From positions 11,665-75,664 of the forward strand of contig CAITYF010000197.1 of the NCBI GenBank assembly GCA_903896545.1: a stretch of DNA of 64,000 bases, given 5' to 3'. Position numbers and translations under genes: made by a program. This stretch comes from an uncultured Myxococcales bacterium. Its GTDB lineage: Bacteria; Myxococcota_A; UBA9042. The stretch's first letter is position 1. Each line of letters starts with the position of its first letter. The notes beneath the pieces are model-generated. The model saw only the letters and a program-made list of their open reading frames with translations, had not been told where the DNA came from and ran no database searches. Shown here in pieces: positions 3,536 to 61,572 of the stretch.

Positions 3536-4207
3536 ATGAGTGCAAGCGCGACGTCTACGCTTCTGGTGGCGGATCGGGTCAAACCGCTCCTGCGCGGCGT
3601 CTCCCACCAAATCGCGTTCTACCTCAGCCTCGTCGCTGGCGCCGCGCTCACCGCGCTTGCGTCGTCGGGCGTGCCGACGTGGTGCGCGTTGGTCTACAGC
3701 ATCTGCTTGGCGGCACTTTTTGGCATCAGCAGCGCCTATCACCGGCCCAACTGGAGTCCGAACGCGCGGCAGTGGATGCGCCGTCTTGATCACGCGGGCA
3801 TCTTCCTCATGATCGCTGGCACCTACACGCCGGTCTGTTTGCTCGCCGTCAAAGGTGAAACTGGCGAACACCTGCTCATTGCGGTCTGGATCGGCGCGGC
3901 TCTGGGTTGCATCAAGTCGGTCGTCTGGGTCAACGCGCCCAAGGCGCTCTTTGCTCTCTTGTGCGTCATCTACGCGTGGGCGGTGCTTGGACAATGGTCG
4001 GCGGTGCACGCTGGAATCGGCGATCGCGGCGCGTGGCTCCTCCTCGGCGGCGGCGCGTCTTACACCGTGGGCGCCGTCATCTACGCGCTCAAGCGCCCCG
4101 ACCCGTTTCCCGCGACGTTTGGCTACCACGAGATCTTCCACGCGCTGGTCATCGCGGGCGCCGTTTGTCACTTTTTCATCGTCACAGCGCTCGTCCTTCC
4201 GGCCTGA
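3536..4207 (+). CDS. Hemolysin III / PAQR (YqfA) family 7-TM membrane protein
   Basis: Seven hydrophobic segments and the family motif FGYHEIFHALVIAGAVCHF near the C-terminus. The ATG at 3536 is preferred over the upstream TTG at 3524. Confidence 0.8.
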   Translation: MSASATSTLLVADRVKPLLRGVSHQIAFYLSLVAGAALTALASSGVPTWCALVYSICLAALFGISSAYHRPNWSPNARQWMRRLDHAGIFLMIAGTYTPVCLLAVKGETGEHLLIAVWIGAALGCIKSVVWVNAPKALFALLCVIYAWAVLGQWSAVHAGIGDRGAWLLLGGGASYTVGAVIYALKRPDPFPATFGYHEIFHALVIAGAVCHFFIVTALVLPA

Positions 4208-4233
4208 GCGCGCACGCACGCGGGGGAACGCGG

Positions 4234-5301
4234 ATGACCGATTTCACCGACCAAGGCGGCCCGGTTCGCGAGGGCGAGGCGCTTGACGCGCAAGCCGTCA
4301 CGACGTGGCTGAAGCCGCACGTTCCGGAGCTGCAAGGTCTGCCAGAAGTGACGCAGTACGCTGGCGGCGCGAGCAATTGGACGTATCGGCTGCGCTATGC
4401 GAGTCACGATCTGATTCTGCGGCGTCCGCCGGCGGGGACGCGGGCCAAGTCGGCGCATGACATGGCGCGGGAATTTCGCGTGCAAGCGGCGCTGCAGCCT
4501 GTGTTCCCGTGGGTGCCCAACATGGTCGCGCTGTGTCAGGACGAGTCCGTGCTGGGCGTGGATTTCTACGTCATGGAGCGGATTCCAGGGGTGATTGCGC
4601 GCGCGCGCCTACCGGAAGGTCTGCGGTTGGATCGCGATCAAGCGCGGCAGCTGTGTCTGAACTGGGTCGACAAGTTGGCGGAACTCCACGCGGTCGACAC
4701 GCAAACGCCAGGGCTGGCGACGTTGGGCAAGGGCACTGGGTACTGCAAACGGCAAATTGACGGGTGGTCGGACAGGTACGAGAAAGCGCGGACGTGGAAC
4801 GTGCCTTCCTACAAGGGCGTACGCGCGTGGCTGCACCAGCAGATTCCGGCGGACGTCGCGACGTGCGTGATCCACGGGGACTGGCGGCTGGACAACGTGG
4901 TCCTGGATCCGACCGACCCGACGCGTATCATCGGCGTGCTGGATTGGGAGATGGCCACGCTGGGGGATCCGCTGATGGACTTGGGCAACGCGCTGGCGTA
5001 CTGGGTGCAGGCCGACGACGGTCTTCTCATGCGGACCACGCGCCGGCAGCCGTCGCATCTGCCGGGAATGCTCACGCGGCGCGAAGTCGTGGCGCGCTAT
5101 TTGGAAAGGACTGGGCGCAGCGTCGACAACTGGGCGTTCTACGAGGTCTACGGTCTCTTTCGTCTGGCCGTGATCGCCCAGCAGATCTACTACCGGTACC
5201 ACCATAAGCAGACACGCAACCCGGCGTTTCGCAACTTCTGGGTCTTGATTCACTACTTGCACTGGCGCTGCAAAAGTGTCATCGCCAAGGGGCACAGCTG
5301 A
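4234..5301 (+). CDS. Phosphotransferase enzyme family protein (APH / choline-kinase-like fold)
   Basis: HGDWRLDNVV (Brenner HGDxxxxN catalytic loop) and IGVLDWEMATLGDPLMD (DWE metal-binding motif). Start placed at MTDFTDQ; the longer upstream ORF extension is Arg/Pro-rich junk. Confidence 0.75.
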   Translation: MTDFTDQGGPVREGEALDAQAVTTWLKPHVPELQGLPEVTQYAGGASNWTYRLRYASHDLILRRPPAGTRAKSAHDMAREFRVQAALQPVFPWVPNMVALCQDESVLGVDFYVMERIPGVIARARLPEGLRLDRDQARQLCLNWVDKLAELHAVDTQTPGLATLGKGTGYCKRQIDGWSDRYEKARTWNVPSYKGVRAWLHQQIPADVATCVIHGDWRLDNVVLDPTDPTRIIGVLDWEMATLGDPLMDLGNALAYWVQADDGLLMRTTRRQPSHLPGMLTRREVVARYLERTGRSVDNWAFYEVYGLFRLAVIAQQIYYRYHHKQTRNPAFRNFWVLIHYLHWRCKSVIAKGHS

Positions 5302-5993
5302 TGGGCGTGGTGTACCTGATTCGCCACGGTCAGGCGTCGTTTGGCGCGGCCAATTACGACCAGCTTTCACAAGTTGGCGAGCGACAGGCGCGCGTGCTTG
5401 GACAGACGCTGCGGGCGCGCTCGCCGCAACTGGACGCGGCTTACGCCGGCGCGATGCAGCGGCACCGGCAGACCGCGGAGCCTGCGCTGACGGCATGGAC
5501 GTCCGCGCCGCCATTGCAGGTACACGCGGGCTTCAATGAATTTGACCATCAGGAAGTGCTGGTGCGCTTCAAACCCGCGTACGCGAACAGACTGCTTTTG
5601 GCGGCGGACATGGCGCGCACGCTGCAGCCGCGCAAGGCATTTCAAGCGGCGTTTGACGCGGCGGCGGCGCGTTGGCTGAGTGGCGCGCACGATGACGAGT
5701 ACGCGGAGCCTTGGCCAGTCTTTCGCGAGCGGTGCGTGACCGCGTTGCACGACGTCATCGCCGCGCTGGGGCCGTCACGCACGGCAGCGGTGTTCACATC
5801 GGGTGGAACAATCAGCGCGATTTTGCAGCATCTGCTCGGCCTGCCGGACGATCGCGTCTTTGCGCTCAATCGCACATTGGTCAACTGCGGCGTGACCAAA
5901 CTTGTCTACGGCGCGAACGGCACGTACGTTTCCACCTGGAACGAGCACAGCCATCTGGAAGGCGACGCCGGCGCGCTCCTCACCTACCGCTAA
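5301..5993 (+). CDS. Histidine phosphatase (phosphoglycerate-mutase-like) family protein
   Basis: N-terminal LIRHGQASFG (RHG catalytic motif). ATGA stop/start overlap with the upstream phosphotransferase gene indicates translational coupling. Confidence 0.8.
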   Translation: MGVVYLIRHGQASFGAANYDQLSQVGERQARVLGQTLRARSPQLDAAYAGAMQRHRQTAEPALTAWTSAPPLQVHAGFNEFDHQEVLVRFKPAYANRLLLAADMARTLQPRKAFQAAFDAAAARWLSGAHDDEYAEPWPVFRERCVTALHDVIAALGPSRTAAVFTSGGTISAILQHLLGLPDDRVFALNRTLVNCGVTKLVYGANGTYVSTWNEHSHLEGDAGALLTYR

Positions 5994-6005
5994 CGGAGAC
6001 ACACG

Positions 6006-6752
6006 ATGCGCAAGACGATCCTCATTACGGGTGCCAGTTCCGGCTTGGGCGAAGGCTTGGCCCGCGAATTCGCCGCGCATGGGCGTGACTTGGCGCTCTG
6101 CGCGCGGCGGACGGAACGGCTCGAAGCATTGCGCGCGGAGCTGCTGGCCAAGCATCCCGGCATCCAGGTGTCGGTTCGGGCGCTCGACGTGAACGATCAC
6201 GCGCAAGTATTTGAAGTGTTCGCCGCTTTTGCAGCGGAATTTGGCACGCTCGATCGGATCATCATCAACGCGGGCATCGGGGAAGGGCGGCGCATCGGCA
6301 CGGGGCACTTTGCGACGAACTTGAAGACGGCGGAGACGAACTTCATCGCCGCGTTGGCGCAATGTGAGGCCGCGGTCGAGATCTTCCGGCGGCAGAAGGA
6401 CGGGCATCTGGTGGCGATTTCTTCGATGAGCGCGTTGCGCGGCATGCCCAAGCACCTCACGGCGTACGCGGCGACCAAGGCGGGGCTGGCGAATCTGGCC
6501 GAGGGCATTCGCGCGGAACTCCTCAACACGCCGATCCGCGTCAGTACGATCTTTCCCGGCTACATCTCGACGGAAATCAACGCCGGGGCGAAGGGACTGC
6601 CGTACCTCGTCGACGCCGCGACTGGATGTCGGCAACTCTTTGCGGCGATTGAGCGTGAACCCGTGAAGGCGTACGTGCCTGCCTATCCTTGGGCGATCCT
6701 CGGTCTGTGGATGCGGTTTATGCCGCTGAAGTGGCTGGCAAAAATGACCTAG
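6006..6752 (+). CDS. Short-chain dehydrogenase/reductase (SDR) family oxidoreductase
   Basis: TGASSGLGEGLA Rossmann motif, NAG motif (IINAGIG) and YxxxK (YAATKAG). Third gene of the phosphotransferase / phosphatase / SDR trio. Confidence 0.85.
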   Translation: MRKTILITGASSGLGEGLAREFAAHGRDLALCARRTERLEALRAELLAKHPGIQVSVRALDVNDHAQVFEVFAAFAAEFGTLDRIIINAGIGEGRRIGTGHFATNLKTAETNFIAALAQCEAAVEIFRRQKDGHLVAISSMSALRGMPKHLTAYAATKAGLANLAEGIRAELLNTPIRVSTIFPGYISTEINAGAKGLPYLVDAATGCRQLFAAIEREPVKAYVPAYPWAILGLWMRFMPLKWLAKMT

Positions 6753-6760
6753 GCGACTCC

Positions 6761-8989
6761 TCAGAGCGGCGAGTAGAAGAAGCGCAACTGCAAACCCTGC
6801 TCGTAGGCGAACGGGTCGAGCGGATTGACGTTCGGCTGGCGCACGACGTTGAGGGTGTAGGTGACCGATGCGAAGCTGCTCAAGCGCAGGCTCAGCGTGT
6901 TGCGCCACGTCATCTGCGTTGCGGTCAGACCTTCAAACGGCAGGAGCATGTCAAATTCGGTGGAGGCCTGCAGGTAGCGCGACAGACGCGCTTGGCCGAG
7001 GGCGGAGACTTCGACGCCGGTCAGCACAGTGCCGCGGACTTGGCGCATCTCAAACGCGGCGGTGGACGCAGAGTCTGCGGGGACGAGTTGGCCGTTGGTG
7101 ACGTATTGGCGCGAGCCAAGACCGCTGCGGAGGTCGAGGTCCAAGAAAACGTTGTGGAGGACGCGGAAGTTCGCGCCGGCGCCTTGTTTGAGCTGGATGG
7201 GGGCGAACGAGGTGGCGAGCTCGAATTGGGAGACGCCGAGGCCGTCGGAGCCCGAGTGGGTGGAGAGGGTGTTGCCGTCAGCGTCTTGGACAACAACAGC
7301 CGTAGGCTTTGTCATGTATACGTAATGGTTAAACAAACTCGTCTCTCCGCCGATGCGGACGTACGGCCCGATCCACGGCAGGTACTGGTAGATGTAAACT
7401 GAGTTCAGGTACACCCGGTCCTTCGTCGACTGCAGGCGGCCGTCGAGGAGGTTTCCCGGCTTGTTGTCCGCGCCCATGATCGGCGTGAGCGTCTGGCCTT
7501 CTTCGATCTCCAGACGGGTGGTCCACACGTGCTGGTCGGTCTTGTACTGCAAGCGATTGTCGGTGAAGAGGTCGATGCCGAGGCTGCTGCCGGCCGGTGC
7601 GCTGGAGAAGCCTTCGGTGCGGCTGGTGAGCAACACGCTGCCGCCGAGCGATGAGCGGATGCTCCAGTGGCTGTCGATGCTGTGGCCACTTTCCGGTTCA
7701 GCGACGCCCGCGCCGAGGAAGTCGCGGGAGACTTCGTCCTGCACCAGCGTAAACGGAACGGCCATGCCAGCGAGAAGTCGTACCGTAGAGAAATTCGTCC
7801 GGGCCCGGTACGTAGACCCCGACTGAATCAACTTGTGCAGGCCTGGTTGCAGAATCCAGACTTGCGTTTCCTGACCCAACTCTTCGTTCACACCGTAGCC
7901 CACGCCGAGGTACTCGCGGTCGTCCATGCGAATGAGCTCGTAGGTGCCCAAGAATGGAATGAAATTGATGTTGACGACCGACACGTCCAGTGCTGCCCAA
8001 TCTGGCGTCACAATGCTGGTTTCTCCTTCAACCACCGTGACCTCGCGCACGACGTGCTGCGACGCTGGCCCCGAACCAAACTCCACCTGATAGTTGCCCG
8101 GTGAGACCGGGATGCGACGTCCCATCGTCCCTGTGGCGACGCGCTTGCCATCGGCCAGCACGGTCACAGGCGGTTCGCGGTCTGGCTTCTGACTAAGAGC
8201 CGGCAGGAAAATCGCGCCTTGTCCCGCCATCACCGGCGTCGGGTCGGATTGGTACTGCTCCGAGTGCCGCCAGTTCACATGGACACCGTTCGTTCCGTCA
8301 AAAACCTCGTTCGCAAAACTCGTCGGTGGCGGCGCGCTCGCATCGGCCGTCGGCGTGATGTCGTGGGCCATCGGCGTGTGCACCGGCACCGGTTTGCCCG
8401 CGACAACGGCATCCACTTCCGGCAAGGCGATCTGCATCTGCTCGTGCAAGATTTCCGACATCGCACGCACGACGAGTCCGACGTTTTGCTCAGCGAGTGG
8501 CCGTCGCTCGTCAAACGAGAATTGCCAGACAGTGCGGTTGTCCTCAAAACGCGTGAGCCGCAGCGTCATCGCCAGGTGTGCGAACCACTGAGTGCCGCCT
8601 TCCAGTTCCTCAATCGCCTGCACGGATGCGTCCAGCACGTAGTTCGGCGGCTTTTCACCCAAACGCTCCACGACGCTACGGAACGTGCCCGACGCCGTGA
8701 ATGCCTGCGCGAGCAATTGGCCAAGCATGCGCGACGGGCGATCGGCCCAGTTGTTCTGGCGGAAAAACTGCAATTCCTGCGGCGAAATCCGGTAGACGAT
8801 CTGCGGGCGGTTGTACACCGGCGACACATCGACTTCATGCAGCAGCAACTCCGGCCCCTTGCGGGCGGGCGGCGGCGCTGTCACCGGCGGTAGGTTCATC
8901 GTGTAGTAACGTTGCTCGGCGGTGGTCGCACCGAAACAACTGGCCAGCAGCAGCGGCACGCATAGCCACAGGCGTTGGGCGGTTTGCAT
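6761..8989 (-). CDS. Lipoprotein: PqiC/ABC-transport-auxiliary-like N-terminal domain fused to a ~550-aa C-terminal domain of unknown function
   Basis: Lipobox LLLASC. The N-terminal ~200 aa (YYTMNLPP...VYNRPQIVYRISPQELQFFRQNNWADRPSRMLGQLL) resembles the ABC-transport auxiliary lipoprotein (PqiC/YmbA) family. The rest is beta-rich and ends ...QLRFFYSPL. It is the last gene of the mla-like operon. Confidence 0.6.
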   Translation of the reverse strand: MQTAQRLWLCVPLLLASCFGATTAEQRYYTMNLPPVTAPPPARKGPELLLHEVDVSPVYNRPQIVYRISPQELQFFRQNNWADRPSRMLGQLLAQAFTASGTFRSVVERLGEKPPNYVLDASVQAIEELEGGTQWFAHLAMTLRLTRFEDNRTVWQFSFDERRPLAEQNVGLVVRAMSEILHEQMQIALPEVDAVVAGKPVPVHTPMAHDITPTADASAPPPTSFANEVFDGTNGVHVNWRHSEQYQSDPTPVMAGQGAIFLPALSQKPDREPPVTVLADGKRVATGTMGRRIPVSPGNYQVEFGSGPASQHVVREVTVVEGETSIVTPDWAALDVSVVNINFIPFLGTYELIRMDDREYLGVGYGVNEELGQETQVWILQPGLHKLIQSGSTYRARTNFSTVRLLAGMAVPFTLVQDEVSRDFLGAGVAEPESGHSIDSHWSIRSSLGGSVLLTSRTEGFSSAPAGSSLGIDLFTDNRLQYKTDQHVWTTRLEIEEGQTLTPIMGADNKPGNLLDGRLQSTKDRVYLNSVYIYQYLPWIGPYVRIGGETSLFNHYVYMTKPTAVVVQDADGNTLSTHSGSDGLGVSQFELATSFAPIQLKQGAGANFRVLHNVFLDLDLRSGLGSRQYVTNGQLVPADSASTAAFEMRQVRGTVLTGVEVSALGQARLSRYLQASTEFDMLLPFEGLTATQMTWRNTLSLRLSSFASVTYTLNVVRQPNVNPLDPFAYEQGLQLRFFYSPL

Positions 8990-9003
8990 GGTCGCGCTCC
9001 TCC

Positions 9004-9942
9004 TCATTTGCCGATCCGCCGATCGCTTTGTTTGTCCGCGCTAAACATCAGAAGCGTCGGATTTTCCTTCACCGCCTGGCTGAAGTCGCTCAAGTCCGCC
9101 GACGCGTCGCGTAAGTGCCGCAGCGTCACGTCAATGTCCGCTTGGCTGCGCGTGATGACCAGATTCAGACTGTCCACCAGCCGCTCGACCTTGTTGACGG
9201 CGGCGTACACTTCACTGTGTGGACCGACAGACTTGCGCAGGTCTTCGGCAGCGCCCTTCAAGTCCAACACGAGCTCGTCCGCGTGCGTCACAACCAGCGC
9301 GGCGTTGTGCGAAACAATGGCGAGTTCCTCGGACGTCTTGCGTGCGTTCGCGATGATCGCCGCAACGTTCTCGCGGTTGTCCGTCAGGATACCCGCACTT
9401 TGGTCGAGGATCTGTTGCACGCTCGCCTGCGCCTTGGTCCCCGTCATCGCTTGCATGTGCACGAGCAAGTCGTCCAGCTTCTCGCCGATGGACGCCGCGC
9501 GTTCCGAAAGTGAATCGAGGAACGAATCGCCGGGTGGGATGAACTCGCCCGGCTTGCGAAGCCGCATCTTGGGCGACCCGCGCGAGATGTCGACGAACTT
9601 CATGCCCGTGATGCCCTGCGAACCGAGGCTCGCTTTGGAGTCCACGGCGATCGGCGTGTCGTGCGCAACGCTGATGGTGACCGCGATGACGGAGACGTTG
9701 TCGGGAGCGACTCCCAATTCTTCGACTCGGCCGATCTTGATGCCGCTGTACGTGACGTCAGAGCCAACCGAGAGACCTGAAAACGACGCGGCTTTGCTTG
9801 AAAAGCGGATGTGGTACGTGTCGCGTTTTTCCGTCAACGCGCGGCCCGCGAGCGCCAACGTCGCGGCGACGAGCACGGTCAAACCGGCGCCGACGAACAG
9901 TCCTAAGCGGACCTTTTGGCCCTTGGTCAAGTTGGCCATCAC
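9004..9942 (-). CDS. MCE-domain (MlaD-like) substrate-binding protein
   Basis: N-terminal TM helix followed by an MCE fold (YHIRFSSKAASFSGLSVGSDVTYSGIKIGRVEEL). Coiled-coil-like C-terminus. 4-nt overlap with the upstream ATPase gene. Confidence 0.8.
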   Translation of the reverse strand: MMANLTKGQKVRLGLFVGAGLTVLVAATLALAGRALTEKRDTYHIRFSSKAASFSGLSVGSDVTYSGIKIGRVEELGVAPDNVSVIAVTISVAHDTPIAVDSKASLGSQGITGMKFVDISRGSPKMRLRKPGEFIPPGDSFLDSLSERAASIGEKLDDLLVHMQAMTGTKAQASVQQILDQSAGILTDNRENVAAIIANARKTSEELAIVSHNAALVVTHADELVLDLKGAAEDLRKSVGPHSEVYAAVNKVERLVDSLNLVITRSQADIDVTLRHLRDASADLSDFSQAVKENPTLLMFSADKQSDRRIGK

Positions 9943-10745
9943 ACACCTTCCTTGGCGGTTTCCAGCCCAAATAGCGTGGCGACGCTCGTGTCTTGCCGCG
10001 CCATCGACTTCGTCTTCCGGGCGAAGAACTCGTCCACGGCGACGATGCCACGACTGCGGACGTCCTGCATCGGCCCCTCGGCGATCACTTTGCCGCCGCC
10101 GACCATGATGAGCGAATCCGCGACGGCTTCAATGCTGGCGAGCTCATGCGTCACAATCACCACGGTCATCTTCAAGCGGTCGCGCAACGACAACAATAGC
10201 GCGTCGAGTTCCGCGGACGTCAGCGGGTCGAGACCGGCGGACGGCTCGTCGCAAAACAGCACTTCCGGATCGAGGGCCAACGCCCGGGCAAGACCGGCGC
10301 GTTTCTTCATACCGCCTGACAACTCGGACGGATACAGGTTCTCCGCGTGGCTCAAATCGACCTGCGCGAGCTTCAGGCGCACCAACTCGGCGATCGCGCC
10401 TTCTGGAAGCCGACGGTGTTCCCGCAGGGGCAGCGCGACGTTTTCGCCGACCGTCAGCGAGCCAAACAGCGCGCCATTTTGGAAAAGCACGCCGATTCTC
10501 TGCATCAGGGCGCCGCGCTCCTTCTCGCCCAGCTTGGTCAGTTCCTGTCCCAGCAGCGACACCTGGCCGCCCGCGATGTCCGTCAGTCCGAGAATGCCTT
10601 TGAGCAGCGTCGACTTGCCAGAGCCGCTGCCACCGAGAATGACGCGGATCTCGCCTTGCCGAACGGTCATATCGACGCCGTCCAGAATCGTCCGCGCGCC
10701 GTAGCGCACGATCATGCCGCGGACTTGGAGGATCACTTCGTTCAT
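9939..10745 (-). CDS. ABC transporter ATP-binding protein (MlaF-like)
   Basis: Walker A GGSGSGKST, ABC signature LSGGMKKR, Walker B LFCDEPSAGLD. Confidence 0.9.
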   Translation of the reverse strand: MNEVILQVRGMIVRYGARTILDGVDMTVRQGEIRVILGGSGSGKSTLLKGILGLTDIAGGQVSLLGQELTKLGEKERGALMQRIGVLFQNGALFGSLTVGENVALPLREHRRLPEGAIAELVRLKLAQVDLSHAENLYPSELSGGMKKRAGLARALALDPEVLFCDEPSAGLDPLTSAELDALLLSLRDRLKMTVVIVTHELASIEAVADSLIMVGGGKVIAEGPMQDVRSRGIVAVDEFFARKTKSMARQDTSVATLFGLETAKEGV

Positions 10746-18993: not shown

Positions 18994-19815
18994 CTACGGA
19001 TCGACAAACAGGTCGATGATCGGCTCCCGTCCGGGCGTCACGTCGTACGGCGTGAAATCTGTCACCCCTTCGGCGCGAAGTACGTCTTCGTCGATGAAGA
19101 ACTGCCCAGTCGTCTCGCGGGAGTTGCGCGTCAAGATCGCGTACGCAGCGTCAGCCATGATGCTCGGTGTTCGGCCCCACTCGCCCAGCCCGGCGTTCGC
19201 AACCTGCAGCGCCGCCGTCGCAATGAGCGTTCGCGGCCAGAGCGCGTTCACGCCGACGCCGGCTTTTCGAAATTCCTCGGCCATCCCCATCGCCAACATG
19301 CTCATGCTGTACTTGGAAACTGTGTACGCCGGATGCTCGCCAAACCACTTTGGCGCCATGTTCAGCGGCGGCGACAGCACCAGAATGTGTGGATTTGCAG
19401 CACGTTGCAGGTGGGGAAGGCAAGTCTGTGAGCACAAGAACGTCCCGCGAACGTTGATGTCCATCATGAGGTCGTAGCGCTTCATCGGCGTTTCGAGCGT
19501 GCCCGTGATCGCGATCGCGCTGGCGTTGTTGACCAAAATGTCGATGCCGCCAAAGCGCGCGACGGCCGCTTCAACCGCGGACTGCACCGCAGCATCGTCC
19601 CGAATATCGACAAACAGCGGCAACGCGTGGCCGCCGACAGCCTCAATCTCGGCCGCCGCAGTGAAAATGGTGCCCGGCAGGCGCGGGTTGGTTTCTGTCG
19701 TCTTGGCTGCAATGACGATGTTGGCACCGTCGCGCGCGGCGCGCAGCGCGATTTCTTTGCCGATTCCGCGACTTGCGCCGGAGATGAAGAGGGTCTTGCC
19801 CGCCAGATTGCCCAT
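18994..19815 (-). CDS. SDR family oxidoreductase (HSDL2 / citronellol-dehydrogenase-like)
   Basis: TLFISGASRGIGKEIA, NNAS, YTVSKYSMS (YxxxK). Start taken at MGNLAGK. Confidence 0.8.
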   Translation of the reverse strand: MGNLAGKTLFISGASRGIGKEIALRAARDGANIVIAAKTTETNPRLPGTIFTAAAEIEAVGGHALPLFVDIRDDAAVQSAVEAAVARFGGIDILVNNASAIAITGTLETPMKRYDLMMDINVRGTFLCSQTCLPHLQRAANPHILVLSPPLNMAPKWFGEHPAYTVSKYSMSMLAMGMAEEFRKAGVGVNALWPRTLIATAALQVANAGLGEWGRTPSIMADAAYAILTRNSRETTGQFFIDEDVLRAEGVTDFTPYDVTPGREPIIDLFVDP

Positions 19816-19930
19816 GTCTCGCCTCGCCAGTTGCCGCGCGTTTGGCGCCGACCGTGACTCTGCGCTGGCCCGTGGCCTTTGGTCAAGGGCTAGCGATGTC
19901 TCGCTCGGATTCATGTGTAATATCATGAAG

Positions 19931-19952
19931 TAGACAGAGCCTTAGGCTATTG
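19931..19952. repeat. REP-like palindromic motif copy (GACAGAGCCTTAGGCTATTG)
   Basis: Near-palindrome centred on GCCTTAGGC, lying ~30 nt upstream of conserved leader 1. Confidence 0.5.
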
Positions 19953-19980
19953 CGCACCAACGCGTATAGTACAAACACAC

Positions 19981-20082
19981 CACCCCAAATTGGTGCCACC
20001 GACCCTGCATTTTGGCCAATCGTGCCAATATCGCCCACCGCCATTGGCGCGTACCTTGTGTATCAGGAAGTCCGCTGGACGC
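19981..20082 (+). promoter_or_regulatory. Conserved ~100-nt 5' leader/promoter module of small gene 1 (candidate sigma-54-like element TGGCGCGTACCTTGTG)
   Basis: Near-identical blocks shared with 22234-22335: CACCCCAAATTGGTG (15/15) and TTGGCGCGTA(C/T)CTTGTGTATCAGGAAGTCCGCTGGACGC (39/40). GGAGG lies 6 nt before the ATG. Confidence 0.5.
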
Positions 20083-20134
20083 AGCCACCAACGGGCAGCA
20101 GAACCCACGCGGCAGAAACACTCGGAGGCACATC

Positions 20135-20404
20135 ATGGACACGCACTTCACCAGCCAACTCTTCCTCAGCATCCTCTTCTTCGCGCCGGGCATGGTCCTC
20201 TTCGCGGGCGTCGCGTTTGTCGGTGGTTTGATGCTGCTCGAAAAGGCCTTCGACCACACCGATACGGAACTCGGGTTGGTCGTGCCTCAAGGCGCTGTCG
20301 ACTTCGCCGCGACGGGCAATCCCGGTCCAGGTCGAATCGTCAACGCGCTGAAGACCAGCATGAACCAGACGGACAAAAAGCCGCAGCGCAAGGTCCATAA
20401 CTAG
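20135..20404 (+). CDS. Small protein P1 (89 aa), paralogue of P2; N-terminal hydrophobic segment and a basic C-terminal tail
   Basis: MDTHFTSQLFLSILFFAPGMVLFAGVAFVGGLMLLEK...NPGPGRIVNALK...KKPQRKVHN. It has its own RBS and a U-tract terminator. Confidence 0.7.
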   Translation: MDTHFTSQLFLSILFFAPGMVLFAGVAFVGGLMLLEKAFDHTDTELGLVVPQGAVDFAATGNPGPGRIVNALKTSMNQTDKKPQRKVHN

Positions 20405-20422
20405 CCCGCGCGGTATCTGCTT

Positions 20423-20467
20423 GCAGGCAGCCGCGCACTTCTCCGCGGGTGCCTGCGGCTTTTTTTG
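20423..20467 (+). terminator. Rho-independent terminator after P1
   Basis: GCAGGCAGCCGCG / CGCGGGTGCCTGC stem (12 of 13 bp paired), 8-nt loop, then GGC and a T7 tract. Confidence 0.7.
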
Positions 20468-20857
20468 GCGACAGTTGCTCAGCCCACTGACCAGCCCGCC
20501 GGTTGTCGTCGGCAGGTACGGCGAAAGGTTCGACTGCGGCGCCTACCAGTTCAGTCCCACGTGGAGGTCGGCGCGCGAAGGGTCGGGTTTTCCAACTGCG
20601 CGAGCCATCTGCCCACGCTCCACTGTCGCGAAGCCTTGGCATCGGCCTCCCCCCGTCCGGGTTCGTCGATGAGCGCGACGATGCTCAAGATTCACGTTTC
20701 GCATCACTCCCCTCGATGCGAGGCATATGCGTAGAGCGCTTTTGCTGGCTCTAACCTCTTATGTTTACATGCTATTGTGTGATTTGACGCGTCCAGCCCT
20801 CCGGTTCACACTGGGCGCCAAGTCCCGTGCGATGCCCGTGACGATGCTGGAGAGTCA

Positions 20858-22087
20858 ATGAGCGGCAAGATCGCAGCAGTTGCGCGCCCTGATGGTTTCG
20901 CGCGGACAAAAACGCTGCATGTGCGTACGGGCTACGTGTGCCAAAACGACTGCCTCTTCTGCTGCGATGGCGGCGGTGGTGTACACGGAACAGCGCAGGA
21001 GTCGCCGTTCGTCCGCCAGATGCTGGAAAAGAACGTGGGCTTGGGGTGTGTCGAGTTTACTGCTCACGAACCCACGCTGAATCCCAACTTGCCGCAGTGG
21101 GCGACCTGGGCGCGCGAATTGGGCTACCCGATCGTGTCTGTCGTGACCAATGGCCGGCTGTTGCGCCGCGGCGACCTTTTGCAGCGCCTTCTGGACGCCG
21201 GCATCAACCGCATTCAAATCTCGTTGCACGGGCATTACGCTGGGTTGCACGACCAGATGACGCAGCGCCTCGGCAGTTTTGACGACACTGTGGCGGGAAT
21301 CCGCGCAGTCGTGGCCGCGCGCCTCGATCGCCCCGGATTGACGTTGCACGTGCACACAACAGTGACACAGCACAATGTGCACGAGCTGAGCAACATCATT
21401 CCCTATGTGCTCGCGTCCAAACCGGACACGTACGGGCTCAACTGCGTGTTTTTGACCGCGTCGGCGGAGCACAACATCGGTGAAACGGCGGTCAGCTATG
21501 CGGAGATCGTGGCAGAACTGCTGCGGTGCCTGCCGTCGACGCGTCGTGACCCGATCTTCGTCAGTGAGATCCCAATTTGTCAGGTTGTGGGCAAACTGGC
21601 GCCGGACTATTTTGGCCTGCGGGAAGGCTTTCACCTGTCGCAGGACGCCGATGCCACGGCGCAAGCCGTTGGGCGAGGCTTTGATTTTGGTCCACGCTGC
21701 GGTGAATGTGCGCTGCGCAACGCGTGTGACGGCGTACCACCGGCGTACGTGGCGCGGTTTGGATGGGACGCGTTTCAACCGGTGACGCAGGAAAGTTTGG
21801 CACGTGCGACGGACGACACGCGCCGCGACTTGCGCCATTTGCTGGCCGCACCAGCGGGCGAGTGGACCATCGTTGGATTGGAGCCGCGCGACGGGTACAC
21901 AACAGTCCGTTTGCAAAGTGCTAAGCTTATTCGGGATTTGTCGGTGCAGGTTCGCCCGCGCGACGACGCGTTCCCCGCCTTCGCGCGGACGGAGACGCTG
22001 AACATCACGCTCGCCGGTCCGTACCAAAGCAAGGACGAGATTTTGCTCGCGCGCAAGCTGCTCGACGTGGTGCGTTCGCGGGAGTAG
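20858..22087 (+). CDS. Radical SAM enzyme with a C-terminal twitch / partial-SPASM-like Cys cluster and a ~110-aa C-terminal extension
   Basis: CQNDCLFC (Cx3Cx2C) at residues ~28-35, a TIM-barrel-like core, a later CGECALRNAC (Cx2Cx5C), plus upstream Cys at RCLP and IPIC. Confidence 0.8.
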   Translation: MSGKIAAVARPDGFARTKTLHVRTGYVCQNDCLFCCDGGGGVHGTAQESPFVRQMLEKNVGLGCVEFTAHEPTLNPNLPQWATWARELGYPIVSVVTNGRLLRRGDLLQRLLDAGINRIQISLHGHYAGLHDQMTQRLGSFDDTVAGIRAVVAARLDRPGLTLHVHTTVTQHNVHELSNIIPYVLASKPDTYGLNCVFLTASAEHNIGETAVSYAEIVAELLRCLPSTRRDPIFVSEIPICQVVGKLAPDYFGLREGFHLSQDADATAQAVGRGFDFGPRCGECALRNACDGVPPAYVARFGWDAFQPVTQESLARATDDTRRDLRHLLAAPAGEWTIVGLEPRDGYTTVRLQSAKLIRDLSVQVRPRDDAFPAFARTETLNITLAGPYQSKDEILLARKLLDVVRSRE

Positions 22088-22120
22088 GGCCGTCAATTCG
22101 CCTCAAACGGGTGGCGCGTA

Positions 22121-22139
22121 CATTGCCTAAGGCTTTGTC
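22121..22139. repeat. REP-like palindromic motif copy (CATTGCCTAAGGCTTTGTC)
   Basis: Same motif family, located between the rSAM stop and leader 2. Confidence 0.5.
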
Positions 22140-22233
22140 AGTGCGTTGATCGTAAACACATTTGCACCCATCCGCCGCCTCGCCACGTCCCGCCATGGTG
22201 CATTCGCACCATACGCGTTTGATGCCATCCCCC

Positions 22234-22335
22234 CACCCCAAATTGGTGTCGAAATCCCTACAGATTGGCCATGACGACCACTATTGCCCTGCGGTCTTGG
22301 CGCGTATCTTGTGTATCAGGAAGTCCGCTGGACGC
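22234..22335 (+). promoter_or_regulatory. Conserved 5' leader/promoter module of small gene 2 (paralogue of 19981-20082)
   Basis: Same conserved blocks and the same ~53-nt spacing to the ATG, with a GGAGG RBS. Confidence 0.5.
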
Positions 22336-22388
22336 CGCCGGGAAGCGGCGGCAAGCCCAAGCGGCAAGAAACCCTCTGGAGGCTCATC

Positions 22389-22658
22389 ATGGAAACCAAC
22401 TACACCACTCAACTCGCTCTCAGCATCCTCTTCTTCGCCCCTGGCATCATCCTCTTCGCTGGCTTGGCCTTCGTCGGTGTGCTGATGATTCTGGAAAAGA
22501 CCGTCTTCCAGGCGCAGGCGACGAACGTGCTGACGAACGGTGGCTTGCACATCGAACTGCCCGCGAACGCGAACCCGGCGCCGGGTGCCATCGTCACGGC
22601 GCTCAAGGATGCGCAACAGCCGGTCGAGCAGAAGAAACAGCGCAAAGCGCATCAATAA
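22389..22658 (+). CDS. Small protein P2 (89 aa), paralogue of P1
   Basis: METNYTTQLALSILFFAPGIILFAGLAFVGVLMILEK...NPAPGAIVTALK...QKKQRKAHQ. Identical in length to P1, with conserved N- and C-terminal thirds and a divergent middle. Confidence 0.7.
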   Translation: METNYTTQLALSILFFAPGIILFAGLAFVGVLMILEKTVFQAQATNVLTNGGLHIELPANANPAPGAIVTALKDAQQPVEQKKQRKAHQ

Positions 22659-22679
22659 CAAGTGATTTGTCGCCATACA

Positions 22680-22724
22680 CAGGCCGTCGCGTCTCCTCCG
22701 CGGCGGCCTGTCGCGTTTTTTTTT
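22680..22724 (+). terminator. Rho-independent terminator after P2
   Basis: CAGGCCGTCGCG / CGCGGCGGCCTG stem (11 of 12 bp paired), 7-nt loop, T9 tract. Confidence 0.7.
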
Positions 22725-22728
22725 GCCG

Positions 22729-23712
22729 TCAATTCGGCTCGATTCCGCGCGCTGCGTTGACCTGCGTGCGGGCCACCAGCGCGTTGTCCAGATTGTAGGT
22801 CATGATGACGTCAAAGCCCGCGTCCCAGAGCGCCACGTGGTCGGCGGGCGTCGGCAGGTGAATGGAGGACACGAAGCCGCGCAGCCCCGCGGGATGAATC
22901 TTCTTGCTGAGCAGATCCGCCATCTTCGCGTTCGCTGCTTCCTGATAGTCTACGCCGATCTCCAAGAACGCCACAACTGGCTTCGCGCTGGATTGCAGCA
23001 CGGCGTCCAACTCGGCCTCCGACGACACCGACGCGTTGTACCAAGTCTTTTGCCAGTCCGCCGACTTCGGCACCGCGGTCTGCAGGTCGCCCAAGCCTGT
23101 CTCCAGAAAGACGTAGTCCAGCGCGTTGTGCTCGATCACCGTCTGAATTGCGCGCGGAAAGTCCACCGGTTCCTTGACGGTCAGCATGATGACGACCTTG
23201 CCGCGCGCCCACTCCAGCACTGTATCCAGCCGCTGGAACGTCTGCGTGTCTGACGGGAAAATGTGGCATTTGGTCACTTGGTCGGCAGTCGAATCTTCCA
23301 CGACAAGTCCCGCGCAATCGGTCGTCTCGTAGCCCAAGAGCGGGCTCGAATGCGTCACGACGGCGACGTTGTCTTTGGTCACGTGGACGTCCGTCTTGAT
23401 GCCGTCGGCGCCTTTGTCGGCCGCTCGATGGAATGCGCCCTCCGAGTCGTACGGAAAGTCTTCGATACTCCAGTCGCCGCCGTGGCTGATGACGAACGCG
23501 CGCTTGCAGTTCAAGTCGTTCCAGCAGACTTTGAGCGAGTCGCGCCATGTGGGTCCGGTCGTCGTCGTTGTGTCGCTTGCAGTGTCCACGCTCGTCGTTG
23601 TGTCCGCCGTCGCATCGGCGTTCGCCATTGTGTCGGTTGACGTCGCGGTTGGCCCCGTGCCGCACGCAGCGAGCGCAAACGAGGTTGCAAAGGCAAGGTT
23701 TTGGAAGTTCAT
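22729..23712 (-). CDS. Glycerophosphodiester phosphodiesterase (GDPD) family lipoprotein
   Basis: Lipobox FALAACGT, a Thr/Asp-rich linker, then VISHGGDWSIEDFPYDSEGAFHRAADKGADGIKTDVHVTKDN (GDPD-type His/Glu/Asp motifs). Confidence 0.65.
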   Translation of the reverse strand: MNFQNLAFATSFALAACGTGPTATSTDTMANADATADTTTSVDTASDTTTTTGPTWRDSLKVCWNDLNCKRAFVISHGGDWSIEDFPYDSEGAFHRAADKGADGIKTDVHVTKDNVAVVTHSSPLLGYETTDCAGLVVEDSTADQVTKCHIFPSDTQTFQRLDTVLEWARGKVVIMLTVKEPVDFPRAIQTVIEHNALDYVFLETGLGDLQTAVPKSADWQKTWYNASVSSEAELDAVLQSSAKPVVAFLEIGVDYQEAANAKMADLLSKKIHPAGLRGFVSSIHLPTPADHVALWDAGFDVIMTYNLDNALVARTQVNAARGIEPN

Positions 23713-32210: not shown

Positions 32211-33338
32211 ATGCTGCCGATTATTCAGCCGGTTTTTGGTCCCGAAGAAGAGGCCGCGGTGCTCGCTGTGCTGCGTTCCGGCTGGGTTGCGCAAGGTCCG
32301 CACGTCGCTGAGTTTGAGCGCAAAGTCGCGCTCCGTGCAGGCGCCAAGTACGCGGTTGCCGTGACGTCTGCGACGACGGGGCTCCATCTCGCGCTTGTCG
32401 CAGCGGGGATTGGGCCAGGGGACGAGGTCATTGTCCCGTCGCTTTCGTTCATTGCGTCGACCAATGCGGTGTGGATGGTCGGTGCGAATCCGGTTTTTGC
32501 AGACGTCGACGAGGAGTTGCCGATCCTGACTCCAGAAACGGTCGCAGCGGTGTGGACTCAAAAAACGCGGGCCGTGCTGGCCGTGCACCAACTCGGCATT
32601 CCGTGCGAGCGCGACGTGCTCCGCGCGATGTGCGAAGAACGCGGGGCGCGGCTGATCGAAGACGCCGCGTGCGCGTTGGGCTCACTGGCTGACGGTCGCC
32701 CGGTGACTGAAGGCGCCGATCTTGCGGTTTTTTCCTTTCACCCGCGCAAAGTGCTGACGATGGGCGAGGGCGGCGCGGTCACGACCGACAACGCGGATTT
32801 TGCCGAACGCCTGAAGCGCCTACGCAACCACGGCATGACGGTCGCAGCCGACGCGCGGCACGGCAATGCGGTCCGCGAAGGCTTTGCGGAACCGGCGTGG
32901 AACTATCGGCTGACGGACATTCAGGGCGCCATCGGCAGCGTGCAAATGGATCGCCTCGACGCGATCTTGGCTGAACGGCAGCGGATTTGGCAGGGCTATC
33001 GCGCGCGCCTGCACGCGGCCCTGCCGGAGATCCGCTTGCTGACGCCGCAGCCGCACGTGCAGTGGAACGTGCAGACCGGCTGCGTGCGTATCCCCGACGG
33101 GAAGCGCGATTCGGTGTTGAAGGCCTTGAACGACGGTGGGATTGGCGCACGACGCGGCATTCTCGCGGCGCATCTGGAGCCCGCATGGGCACACTGGCCG
33201 CGGACGCAATTGCCCAACTCAGAAGCCTGGGCGCACGACTCGCTCGCGCTGCCCGTGTTTCACGGAATGACGGGCGCGCAGCAAGATGAAGTCGTCCACG
33301 CGCTAGCCTTGGCGCTTGGTTATTTGGAAACGGTATAG
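32211..33338 (+). CDS. DegT/DnrJ/EryC1/StrS family PLP-dependent sugar aminotransferase
   Basis: LSFIASTNAV, the FSFHPRKVLTMGEGGAV Lys region, and general ArnB/DegT-like architecture. Confidence 0.8.
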   Translation: MLPIIQPVFGPEEEAAVLAVLRSGWVAQGPHVAEFERKVALRAGAKYAVAVTSATTGLHLALVAAGIGPGDEVIVPSLSFIASTNAVWMVGANPVFADVDEELPILTPETVAAVWTQKTRAVLAVHQLGIPCERDVLRAMCEERGARLIEDAACALGSLADGRPVTEGADLAVFSFHPRKVLTMGEGGAVTTDNADFAERLKRLRNHGMTVAADARHGNAVREGFAEPAWNYRLTDIQGAIGSVQMDRLDAILAERQRIWQGYRARLHAALPEIRLLTPQPHVQWNVQTGCVRIPDGKRDSVLKALNDGGIGARRGILAAHLEPAWAHWPRTQLPNSEAWAHDSLALPVFHGMTGAQQDEVVHALALALGYLETV

Positions 33339-33610
33339 ACCGCGCCGCCAATTGTCCCAAAGTACAAGCACTTGTCGTCGACCGCGAGCACGCGTTGGAA
33401 CGGCCAGCCGTCCAACTGGCCCATCTCGTTGTAGAGTTCGGTCTCCGTGGACGTCGTCAGGTTCCAACGCGCCAGCGGTCCATTCAGGATCTTGTAGTAC
33501 GCGTTGTCGCCGTCCATCAGCAGGTTGCGGGGGCTGCCCGACGTCGTCTTCACGTGCGTCAGGTTTTGGCCGCTCGTGTCGACGCGCCACAAGCCCGCGT
33601 CCGTATTGGT
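33290..33610. repeat. Left copy of the ~320-bp segmental duplication (partner at 36139-36466)
   Basis: ~97% identical by eye to 36139-36466. It spans the aminotransferase 3' end and the 3' end of the Cys-repeat protein gene. Confidence 0.85.
33320..33610 (-). pseudogene. 3'-terminal fragment of the Cys-repeat / beta-propeller protein gene; the intact copy is at 36175-38583
   Basis: Encodes ...TSGQNLTHVKTTSGSPRNLLMDGDNAYYKILNGPLARWNL...GGAVYTVSK, identical to the C-terminus of the 802-aa protein, and lacks an N-terminal part. Confidence 0.7.
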
Positions 33611-36138: not shown

Positions 36139-36466
36139 GGTGGAAGTCGTCCACGCGCTAGCCTTGGCGCTTGGTTACTTGGAAACGGTATAGACCGCGC
36201 CGCCAATTGTCCCAAAGTACAGGCACTTGTCGTCGACCGCGAGCACGCGTTGGAACGGCCAGCCGTCCAACTGGCCCATCTCGTTGTAGAGCTCGGTCTC
36301 CGTGGACGTCGTCAGGTTCCAACGCGCCAGCGGTCCATTCAGGATCTTGTAGTACGCGTTGTCGCCGTCCATCAGCAGGTTGCGGGGGCTGCCCGACGTC
36401 GTCTTCACGTGCGTCAGGTTCTGGCCACTCGTGTCGATCCGCCACAAGCCCGCGTCCGTGTTGGTG
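36139..36466. repeat. Right copy of the ~320-bp segmental duplication
   Basis: Carries a remnant of the aminotransferase 3' end (encoding VVHALALALGYLETV) plus the genuine 3' end of the Cys-repeat protein gene. Confidence 0.85.
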
Positions 36467-47813: not shown

Positions 47814-47825
47814 GGGCAAGCTACA

Positions 47826-47969
47826 CATCCCTGCATTGACTCGGAGCCAAATATCTTGTGTCGCCGCGAGTCGGCCCGCAGGGACGCGAGCTTGGCGACC
47901 CACCTAGCAGCCCAAACATGCCCACCCAGCGTTCAGCATTTGATCTCCAGTCCTGGCAGGCATGTTTAG
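47826..47969 (+). repeat. 144-bp MITE-like repeat, copy 2
   Basis: CATCCCTGCATTGACTCGGAGCC...GGCAGGCATGTTTAG. Its terminal TTTAG supplies the TAA stop (minus strand) of the gene at 47966-48970. Confidence 0.8.
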
Positions 47970-60111: not shown

Positions 60112-60957
60112 ATGACTACACCCCGCAAAATCGTCGTAACCGGCGCTTCGACAGGCTTTGGGCGCTGCATCGCAGAAGCCGCGCTCGCCCAGGGGTGGTC
60201 CGTGCTGGGCACCGTTCGCAAGGACACCGACGCCGCCGACTTGCGCGCCAAGGGCATTGCCGTCGCGCAGTTTGACCTCGCGGTGCCCGAATCGATCGGC
60301 CCTGGCTGCGCGCAAATTCTCGCGTGGTGCGAGGGCAATCTGGACGCGCTGGTCAACAACGCCGGCTCGACTTGGCCCGGTCCCATCGAGCTCGTGACGA
60401 TGGCTGATCTGCGTGTGCAGTTTGAAGTGAACACTTTTGGCCACATCGACGTGACGCAGCGCCTGCTTCCGGCGATCCGCGCAGGGCATGGCCATGTGCT
60501 CTTCATCTCGTCGGACTCGACCACGTTGACGCCGCCGATCGTCGGCACCTACGCGGCGTCCAAGCGCGCCATCGAGGCGCTCGCCGAGTCGCTGGCTCAG
60601 GAAACGGCGGGGCAGGGCATTCACGTGTCGATCGTCGCGCCCGGACCGTATCAGACCGCGATTTGGGGGACCTCGATTCCCCGCGGCGAGGCGTACCTGG
60701 AAACCGCCGATCCGCGGCTGCAGCTTTACCGCACGCTGGCCGAACAGTTGGGCAGAGCGTCCACCAACCGCCCGCTGGGCGATCCGATGGACCTCGCGCA
60801 GGTCGTGCTGAAGCAGTTGAACGACCCGAATCCACCGCTGCGCACGGTGGCGCCGTTTCAGTCGCGGCTGGTCAGCTGGGTGCGTGCGCTCATCGGCCCG
60901 CGGCGCTTCCACAAGCTGCTGCGTTTTGTCATCGCCAAGCAAGGTGCAGCGAGCTAG
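60112..60957 (+). CDS. SDR family oxidoreductase
   Basis: AAGGAG RBS 6 nt upstream. VVTGASTGFGRCIA, NNAG, YAASKRAIE (YxxxK). Confidence 0.8.
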   Translation: MTTPRKIVVTGASTGFGRCIAEAALAQGWSVLGTVRKDTDAADLRAKGIAVAQFDLAVPESIGPGCAQILAWCEGNLDALVNNAGSTWPGPIELVTMADLRVQFEVNTFGHIDVTQRLLPAIRAGHGHVLFISSDSTTLTPPIVGTYAASKRAIEALAESLAQETAGQGIHVSIVAPGPYQTAIWGTSIPRGEAYLETADPRLQLYRTLAEQLGRASTNRPLGDPMDLAQVVLKQLNDPNPPLRTVAPFQSRLVSWVRALIGPRRFHKLLRFVIAKQGAAS

Positions 60958-60958
60958 A

Positions 60959-61102
60959 CATCCCTGCGTTGACTCGGAGCCAAATATCTTGTGTCGCCGC
61001 GAGTCGGCCCGCAGGGACGCGAGCTTGGCGACCCAGCTAGCAGCCTAAACATGCCCACCCGGCGTCCAGCATTTGATCTCCAGTCTTGGCAGGCATGTTT
61101 AG
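60959..61102 (+). repeat. 144-bp MITE-like repeat, copy 3
   Basis: Starts 2 nt after the SDR TAG stop. Its terminal TTTAG provides the TAA stop (minus strand) of 61099-61572. Confidence 0.8.
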
Positions 61103-61572
61103 TTCGCCTCTGCACGGCAGCGGTTGCGCAAGTCGCTGTTGTTGATCGACTCGCAGGCGCTTTTGTTGTGCCCCGCGACGCCGCGGCAGTAGTTGCGCTT
61201 GTCGCTGTCGCCGATCGATTCGCACGGGCTCTTGTCGTGACGCGAAACGGCGCGGCAGTGGTTGCGCGCGTCGCTGTCCGAGATCGACTCGCAGTTGCCT
61301 GAGCTGCTGGAGCCGCCCGCGACGCCGCGGCACTGGTTGCGCAGGTTGCTGTCGCCAATCGACTCACAGTGTGACTTCTCGCCGCTCGCCTCGGCACGAC
61401 AGTAGTTGCGTTTGTCGCTGTTGCTGATCGATTCGCAAGGGCTCTTGTCGTGCTTGGCCACAGCGCGGCAATGGTTGCGCGCGTCGCTGTCAGAGATCGA
61501 CTCGCAATTGCTGGCGTTCGCCGCCGCGTTCACGGTCCACAAAGTCATCGCCACCACAGTCCACTTCCACAT
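61099..61572 (-). CDS. Secreted protein made of about eight tandem ~16-aa CESI(S/G)DSDxRNxCR repeats
   Basis: Signal peptide MWKWTVVAMTLWTVNAAANA, then NCESISDSDARNHCRAV / SPCESISNSDKRNYCRAE / SHCESIGDSNLRNQCRGV and so on, with two Cys per repeat. Confidence 0.6.
   Translation of the reverse strand: MWKWTVVAMTLWTVNAAANASNCESISDSDARNHCRAVAKHDKSPCESISNSDKRNYCRAEASGEKSHCESIGDSNLRNQCRGVAGGSSSSGNCESISDSDARNHCRAVSRHDKSPCESIGDSDKRNYCRGVAGHNKSACESINNSDLRNRCRAEAN

Follow-up and report, generated by a model that had tools for sequence, protein, structure and literature searches.

The two small genes A and B of the window, by which we mean the whole stretch of 64,000 nucleotides analysed, each appear to be preceded by one copy of a duplicated sigma-70-type promoter-operator, probably response-regulator-dependent, together with the start of the mRNA; we give this reading a probability of about 0.65. 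It is carried by the conservation of the non-coding sequence, the register of the putative sites, the invariance of a hexamer at the -10 position, the absence of sigma-54 features in the homologues, and synteny. In the proposed mechanism each small gene would be its own transcription unit, and what had been called a leader would consist of a promoter-operator plus the mRNA start. A regulator would bind the palindrome TGGTGC-N4-GCACCA and two to three further sites (AAAT(T)GGTG, A(A/T)TGG and CAATGTTGC), the last of which would lie over the -35 position of a promoter without a usable -35 hexamer. A sigma-70-family RNA polymerase would use TACCTT in copy A and TATCTT in copy B, and transcription would probably begin at a CA located 7 nt downstream. 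The resulting leader of ~70 nt would carry AGGAAGU followed by a stem-loop, probably protecting the 5' end of the mRNA while leaving GGAGG free, and an intrinsic terminator would close each monocistronic transcript. The regulator would most likely be a NarL/FixJ-type response regulator, of which the window genes would be orphan regulon members, acting in a geometry akin to that of BvgA at the fha and ptx promoters. The features are as follows.

19943-19983, plus strand: distal region of copy A, with two degenerate TGGTGC-N4-GCACCA palindromes (TAGGCTATTGCGCACCA, 19943-19959; GTATAGTACAAACACACCAC, 19964-19983)
19986-19995, plus strand: putative site 2 of copy A, CAAATTGGTG; consensus cAAATtGGTG, -66 to -57 from the hexamer (27 sequences, gapless)
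20008-20016, plus strand: putative site 3 of copy A, CATTTTGGC; consensus gca.AaTGG, -45 to -37
20025-20034, plus strand: putative site 4 of copy A, CCAATATCGC, promoter-proximal and covering -35; consensus cCaATgTTGc, -27 to -18
20052-20057, plus strand: proposed sigma-70-family -10 hexamer of copy A, TACCTT, inside the element (20045-20060) earlier read as -24/-12
20065-20134, plus strand: predicted 5' UTR of copy A, from the predicted start A20065; ribosome-binding site GGAGG at 20124-20128
20072-20112, plus strand: predicted stem-loop of copy A (centroid fold), CCGCTGG paired with CCACGCGG and enclosing an inner stem
20135-20404, plus strand: small gene A, an open reading frame of 89 aa with an N-terminal membrane helix and the motif NPGPGRIVNALK
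20443-20466, plus strand: intrinsic terminator of gene A, stem and T-run
22089-22104 and 22725-22740, plus strand: 16-nt direct repeat GCCGTCAATTCGSCTC, bracketing the whole B unit (promoter, gene and terminator)
22112-22126, plus strand: isolated third core TGGCGCGTACATTGC, with the hexamer TACATT and CAAT 25 nt upstream, and no site array
22195-22212, plus strand: distal palindrome of copy B, ATGGTGC-ATTC-GCACCAT
22239-22287, plus strand: putative sites 2 to 4 of copy B (CAAATTGGTG, 22239-22248; CAGATTGGC, 22261-22269; CCACTATTGC, 22278-22287), in register with copy A and the relatives
22305-22310, plus strand: proposed -10 hexamer of copy B, TATCTT, on the same basis as in copy A
22318-22388, plus strand: predicted 5' UTR of copy B, from the predicted start A22318; GGAGG at 22378-22382
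22325-22364, plus strand: predicted stem-loop of copy B, CCGCTGG with CCAAGCGG; inner stem GCCGCC/GGCGGC
22389-22658, plus strand: small gene B, 89 aa, 48% identical to A
22679-22724, plus strand: intrinsic terminator of gene B, 13-bp stem and T-run

Both genes are preceded by two shared blocks, as an earlier note on this DNA had described. The short block, CACCCCAAATTGGTG, occurs exactly twice (19981-19995 and 22234-22248, 15/15 identical). As a bare 15-mer with up to three mismatches it gives at least two matches in 43 of 100 shuffled sequences and is thus unremarkable alone; its significance derives from its context. The long block, TGGCGCGTA(C/T)CTTGTGTATCAGGAAGTCCGCTGGACGC, is identical at 37 of 38 positions between 20045-20082 and 22298-22335, with one difference, and finds no match in 100 shuffles. 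Its near-identity therefore holds, although the figure becomes 38/39 when the preceding T is included and not the 39/40 that had been claimed. The gap between the blocks measures 48 nt rather than ~60 and is partly conserved (TTGGCC and CCA(A/C)TAT are common to both copies), not wholly variable as supposed. The start codons lie where the note had placed them, at 20135 and 22389, respectively 52 and 53 nt past the long block, and each is preceded by GGAGG. Among 12 relatives the mean pairwise identity of a 35-nt block is 0.92, as against 0.68 for third codon positions in the best-conserved 38 codons of the same comparison; the non-coding block is thus better conserved than the coding sequence. 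In several species-level MAGs, too, the duplicated blocks are invariant whichever paralogue type they precede. These alignments bear out the proposal of selection on regulatory sequence, and the duplicated non-coding blocks are accordingly under selection, gene conversion alone not accounting for their identity. Two other explanations of the block were rejected: it is not in-frame coding sequence, as the copies read it in different frames and it is conserved without codon periodicity, and it is not an integron attC or mobile repeat, as the element is present solely upstream of the small-gene family.

The small proteins A and B match no Pfam or NCBIfam family. A profile search places them in a family of 46 protein clusters, and scans of genomes and metagenomes gave 29 loci, nearly all in uncultured Myxococcales MAGs, to which exact-protein look-ups added more. 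The family, often with 2-3 paralogues per genome, is found almost only in uncultured Myxococcales-like MAGs. Its members share a single N-terminal membrane helix with an invariant A-P-G, a conserved EK, a variable middle and the motif NPAPGxIVxALK (alignment A4). Between A and B the window encodes a radical-SAM protein (20858-22087) whose best match is HxsC4, at 173 bits against a cut-off of 500, with no SPASM match. This gene is not a conserved partner, because in one relative DUF1501/PSCyt genes replace it between the paralogues while the flanking dehydrogenase and GDPD genes are kept. In one related locus of 31% GC (L029, about 300-360), the array and small gene directly follow a sequence resembling a tRNA 3' end (GGTTCGAATC...CCA).

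Upstream of the long block lies an array of four to five binding-site-like motifs (the TGGTGC-N4-GCACCA palindrome, AAAT(T)GGTG, A(A/T)TGG and CAATGTTGC), spaced ~19-22 bp apart. The proposed -10 hexamer follows 26 bp downstream of the last motif, which overlies the -35 position. When 27 homologous regions, from genomes of 31% to 67% GC, are anchored on the hexamer, the upstream motifs fall in register with zero gaps; the conserved cores stand at about -62, -41 and -22 from the hexamer, with a further conserved motif, CCAC, at -72 to -69. The CAAT of site 4 begins 26 nt before the hexamer in 22 of the 27 sequences and 24-25 nt before it in the others, and the T and G of site 3 are invariant in a MAFFT alignment (A6). 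The interval between sites 3 and 4 is ~19 bp, not 22. The distal palindrome occupies either of two positions ~22 bp apart, and the degenerate distal region of copy A aligns with well-formed palindromes of relatives, e.g., ATGGTGCAAATGCACCA in L011. Dyad symmetry is clear for the palindrome only; the remaining sites are without it. The arms of the palindrome vary without compensation; the palindrome is for this reason read as a DNA site, and an RNA hairpin was rejected. The dyad of the earlier note corresponds to site 2 plus CACC at 19981-19984. From its position among four to five phased sites in register across the 27 regions it is very probably a regulator-binding site, as suggested.

A sequence model of this upstream region (R1) was searched over 310 kb, comprising the window and 33 related loci. 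All 30 plus-strand matches lie directly upstream of a member of the small-protein family, and two of them revealed paralogues previously unnoticed. The window contains two (19945-20069, 74.9 bits; 22194-22322, 77.6 bits) and none elsewhere. The scan for the leader that the note had proposed as a means of defining the regulon thus yields, over 310 kb, no regulon member outside the small-protein family, and the copies in front of unrelated genes that it had envisaged were not encountered.

The sigma-70-type assignment centers on the hexamer. In A6, a free MAFFT alignment of 23 regions, five columns are invariant: three in the TGG cores of sites 2 and 3, and positions 2 (A) and 6 (T) of the hexamer (23/23). 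In the gapless set of 27 sequences, A is found at position 2 in 26 and T at position 6 in all. TACCTT itself agrees with TATAAT at only three positions. In AT-richer relatives, however, the hexamer reads CATAAT (L025), CATACT (L016), GATATT (L019), CATAGT (L017 and L020) or TATAAT (L031), and in an untrimmed MAFFT alignment all of these fall in one column. The anchors for distant sequences were chosen by eye and A6 was built from trimmed sequences, so that only the untrimmed alignment is fully unbiased; it and the register of the upstream sites serve as independent checks on the hexamer. In L031 a mere 25 nt separate TATAAT from the start codon, and the promoter must consequently be located there. 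In A-type loci (L011, L004, L005 and L035) the array starts ~10-20 nt from the -35 of a divergent dehydrogenase promoter, which leaves no room for a plus-strand promoter upstream of the array. In the window this divergent short-chain dehydrogenase gene (~18994-19815) has a sigma-70-like promoter, TTGACC-N18-CAGAGT, on the minus strand at ~19855-19890; the promoter is conserved in L004, L005, L011 and L035, ~10-60 nt from the array, and the array might regulate both directions, dehydrogenase included.

No TTGACA-like -35 hexamer is present at 17±1 bp from the proposed -10: at 17-bp spacing the sequence would be TgTTGc, and the only TTG (TTGc) stands at 15 bp. A generic sigma-70 scan of 19700-22900, which needs a -35/-10 pair, found no promoter and is uninformative because the promoter is without a -35. 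The lack of a usable -35 and the position of the proximal site over it fit an activator-dependent promoter, and binding sites that continue down to -35 resemble those of sigma-70 activators, unlike remote enhancer sites. The conserved region is therefore most likely, on sequence grounds, a sigma-70-type promoter and regulator-binding region activated by a response regulator. A CA occurs 6-7 nt past the hexamer in most sequences, and transcription is predicted to start, probably, at A20065 and A22318, 7 nt after it. The ~30 nt from -10 to +14 are invariant, which exceeds the needs of a -10 element plus hairpin; the promoter model explains only part of this conservation. An ECF-type promoter (-35 GGAAC, -10 CGTC) was rejected, its hexamers being missing in L009, L021, L028 and L030, where TACCTT is kept; the other -10 candidates, TATCAG and TGTATC, are absent from the same four loci and were discarded likewise.

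A candidate for the array-binding protein comes from relatives in which array and small gene belong to a larger cluster. In L019 the order is:

4001-5797: haem-c-type sensor-like protein
5822-5946: array
6001-6249: small gene
6350-7615: NapC/NirT multihaem cytochrome
7612-9876: HAMP-HisKA_3 kinase
9851-10492: regulator with Response_reg and GerE domains

L026 and L030 have the same gene order, of which L025, L027 and L028 show a part (cluster spans: L019, 4001-10492; L026, 2003-8262; L030, 2155-8231). In L019 and L026 no terminator follows the small gene, unlike in window genes A and B, and the array therefore probably drives the kinase-regulator operon there. A NarL/FixJ-type response regulator is, from these gene arrangements, most likely the array-binding protein, because its gene belongs to an operon that opens with the same array and small gene; the assignment is one of synteny, or guilt by association. 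In the MAG co141_27 the array stands before the small gene of the cluster (L019) and again before an orphan copy of that gene (L016). The 64-kb window encodes none of the proteins of the cluster, the NarL-type regulator included. The ~600-aa sensor of the cluster has CXXCH motifs and only a weak Tll0287-like match; the cluster may be an uncharacterised redox-sensing module.

The same sigma-70-type promoter could instead be accompanied by repressor operators, or by sites for a regulator of another family, rather than by NarL-type activator sites. This is unlikely, though several features would accommodate it: the proximal site overlaps -35, a position at which repressors act as well, the surplus conservation between -10 and +14 might represent a second operator, and the regulator is assigned from synteny only. 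However, the promoter has no usable -35 (TTGc at 15-bp spacing), which is typical of activator-dependent promoters, and arrays that end at -35 and are co-encoded with a kinase and a regulator fit autoregulated activation (PMC7250471). We thus infer activation rather than repression.

The earlier note had read TGGCGCG-N4-TTGTG as the -24/-12 elements of a sigma-54 promoter, with an enhancer-binding protein at the upstream dyad. Sigma-54 (RpoN) promoters are defined by TGGCACG-N4-TTGC(T/A) (PMC9765219). The window copies resemble them, and the Nla28/Nla6 targets of M. xanthus, in this element and in the dyad-like sites upstream; in both copies TGGC-N7-TTG is correctly spaced, and the 10-nt gap between GG and the position of GC, which varies among relatives, is kept. 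Nor does the GT at -12 allow the two copies alone to be dismissed, because M. xanthus, which has many sigma-54 promoters with sites for enhancer-binding proteins, tolerates GT at -12 in the mutationally characterised nla6 promoter (PMC9765219). The decision comes from the relatives. When 27 distinct homologous upstream regions are compared at the two columns, GG is found at '-24' in 8, and the '-12' dinucleotide is GT in 16, GA in 5 and GC in 1. Upstream of family members the core GCGCGTACCTTGTGTATCAGGAAGTCCGCTGG recurs without change in L003, L004 (two copies), L005 (two copies), L008, L010, L011, L033 and L034, and almost unchanged in L035. Even in the 11 sequences with an identical block '-24' reads GG in only 6, with CG in 1 (L003), GA in 3 (L010, L033, L034) and TG in 1 (L035), so that 5 of them are without GG. 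TGGC at '-24' is restricted to the two window copies and L009; the distance from GG to TTG is not constant either, L009, L028 and L030 having their nearest GG 8-9 nt away.

Furthermore, relatives carry canonical, TATAAT-type hexamers at the homologous position without GG or GC, and the sites reach -35. A sigma-54 activator signature (GAFTGA-type) is found neither in the 64-kb window nor in 32 of the 33 related loci, and no such activator is a conserved neighbor. The exception is L024 (about 5000-6430, minus strand), the sole locus in which an NtrC-type sigma-54 activator (GAFSGA) and a histidine kinase adjoin the small gene, in convergent orientation; L024 itself lacks the GG. A sigma-54 promoter is consequently very unlikely, because GG is unconserved among sequences that are otherwise invariant: the window sequences alone are insufficient to argue against it, but the comparative data would exclude it, and the TGGC of the two window copies would be a coincidental flank of a -10 element. 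A transcription start mapped upstream of the dyad, proposed earlier as a discriminating result, would not discriminate, because the sigma-54 and sigma-70 readings place the start within ~5 nt of each other.

Downstream of the predicted start, the ~70-nt leader begins with AGGAAGU, followed by CCGCUGG, which can pair with CCA(N)GCGG ~30 nt on. In most GC-rich members the stem-loop starts 4-8 nt after the predicted start, and the stem sequences differ by lineage. Visual inspection shows that L013 and L035 retain the stem despite sequence changes; in L009, L021, L024, L026-L028, L030, L017 and L020 the corresponding position is taken by unrelated hairpins. The short-leader relatives L031, L029 and L025 have no hairpin while keeping array and hexamer. 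The earlier note had advised a covariance and RNA-structure analysis of the leader: a stem is predicted in single sequences, but RNAalifold on MAFFT-aligned leaders did not recover the hairpin and gave 0 compensatory pairs, and Rfam has no relevant match at gathering thresholds over the 64 kb, nor at E up to 10 over 19800-22750. Compared with shuffled sequences, the leaders fold with z between +1.3 and -3.6 (mean ~-0.9), copy A being near zero and no better than shuffles.

The most economical reading of the hairpin would be a 5' stabilising stem-loop, a riboswitch being unlikely. Such elements at the 5' terminus of mRNAs include the E. coli ompA leader and the STAB-SD elements of Bacillus. In both, as here, the stem-loop lies a few nt from the 5' end and the ribosome-binding site is free, and in the present leaders a purine-rich AGGAAG precedes it; here, in contrast, the 5' end is only predicted and the thermodynamic signal is weak. 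It is highly improbable that the block is mainly a cis-regulatory RNA (a riboswitch, or a leader binding a protein or sRNA) acting on translation or stability, with the promoter located elsewhere. The post-start half of the block, AGGAAGUCCGCUGG, and its partner CCA(N)GCGGCAG are conserved, the stem persists in L013 and L035 although its sequence has altered, and other lineages form a stem from unrelated sequence, all of which would suit an RNA function. Against this stand the empty Rfam search, the modest folding signal, the lack of compensatory pairs, the free ribosome-binding site, the hairpin-less relatives that retain array and hexamer, and the uncompensated variation in the arms of the upstream palindrome.

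The 10-mer TGGCGCGTAC occurs a third time at 22112-22121, as reported, and gives at least two matches in 1 of 100 shuffles. At this position, R1 with filters off finds no meaningful match (2.3 bits). The third core (22112-22126) lies just after the first copy of the direct repeat GCCGTCAATTCGSCTC, and is probably vestigial, a relic of duplication. GCCGTCAATTCGSCTC has two exact matches and one single-mismatch match at 16425, with matches in 0 of 100 shuffles; its second copy forms the 3' end of the convergent GDPD gene, and the pair may be the scar of a duplication or insertion. That the identity of the blocks reflects only recent duplication or gene conversion without selection, as copies 2.25 kb apart in one genome and a 16-nt repeat around the B unit might suggest, is barely credible, since the proteins are only 48% identical and the reading is already contradicted by cross-species conservation: in other species the orthologues of either paralogue type carry the block unchanged, and its identity exceeds that of third codon positions (0.92 versus 0.68).

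Other repeats are present in the window. A 300-nt direct repeat, 98% identical, is found 2.9 kb apart at 33288-33587 and 36143-36442, and a 154-nt repeat, 95% identical, 13 kb apart at 47816-47969 and 60949-61102. Directly after the second 154-nt copy, 61105-61511 holds four copies of a ~125-nt unit (spacings 69, 144 and 69 nt). Within the gene at 36175-38583 (minus strand), 37204-38069 contains repeats with a ~228-nt period and many TGC/GCA (Cys-codon-like) motifs, which suggests a cysteine-rich repeat protein.

Under the preferred reading, that of a regulated sigma-70-type promoter duplicated with its operator, the near-consensus sigma-54 motif in two paralogous promoters would be a coincidence around a sigma-70-type -10, and a tempting misreading is corrected; single-genome motif matches in GC-rich Myxococcota need comparative support. 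For an uncharacterised family of small membrane proteins from uncultured Myxococcales-like MAGs, the analysis also yields a testable hypothesis of a regulon, comprising a defined operator, a candidate NarL-type regulator and a signalling link to a multihaem cytochrome; otherwise this would be an ordinary regulated promoter. A more far-reaching model is possible, and we offer it tentatively: the array would be the autoregulated operator of a two-component redox-sensing module, the invariant segment from -10 to +14 would hold a second control element, either operator or RNA signal, and the orphan small-protein copies would be regulon members. If true, the module would combine the small membrane protein with a haem-c-type sensor, a NapC/NirT multihaem cytochrome, a HisKA_3 kinase and a NarL-type regulator; genomes of 31% to 67% GC would have preserved the geometry of its promoter, and these freshwater Myxococcales would have acquired orphan small-protein copies.

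Two groups of response-regulator promoters offer the closest parallels. In OmpR/PhoB-type promoters (ompF, ompC, pho boxes), several contiguous ~20-bp sites fill the region between about -100 and -40, the proximal one standing in for an absent -35, and activation is by the phosphorylated response regulator. The array likewise has multiple ~20-bp sites with the proximal one apparently substituting for -35. However, OmpR/PhoB regulators are winged-helix proteins that bind direct repeats, whereas here the distal site is palindromic and the associated regulator carries a domain of the GerE/LuxR type. In the second group, dimers of the NarL-family regulator BvgA line one face of the DNA at 22-bp intervals, the first at an upstream inverted repeat and the last at a site abutting an imperfect -35 (PMC7250471). 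The half-site here is TGGTGC and not the BvgA heptad, the last interval is ~19 bp, and the regulator is not encoded near the window copies. Nevertheless, the Bordetella promoters Pfha and Pptx and the array as read here share an inverted repeat followed by weaker sites at a spacing of about two helical turns on one face, a last site at -35, an imperfect -35 hexamer and a sigma-70-type core (PMC7250471). BvgA belongs to the NarL/FixJ family, and it is a regulator of this same family that relatives encode in the operon behind the array.
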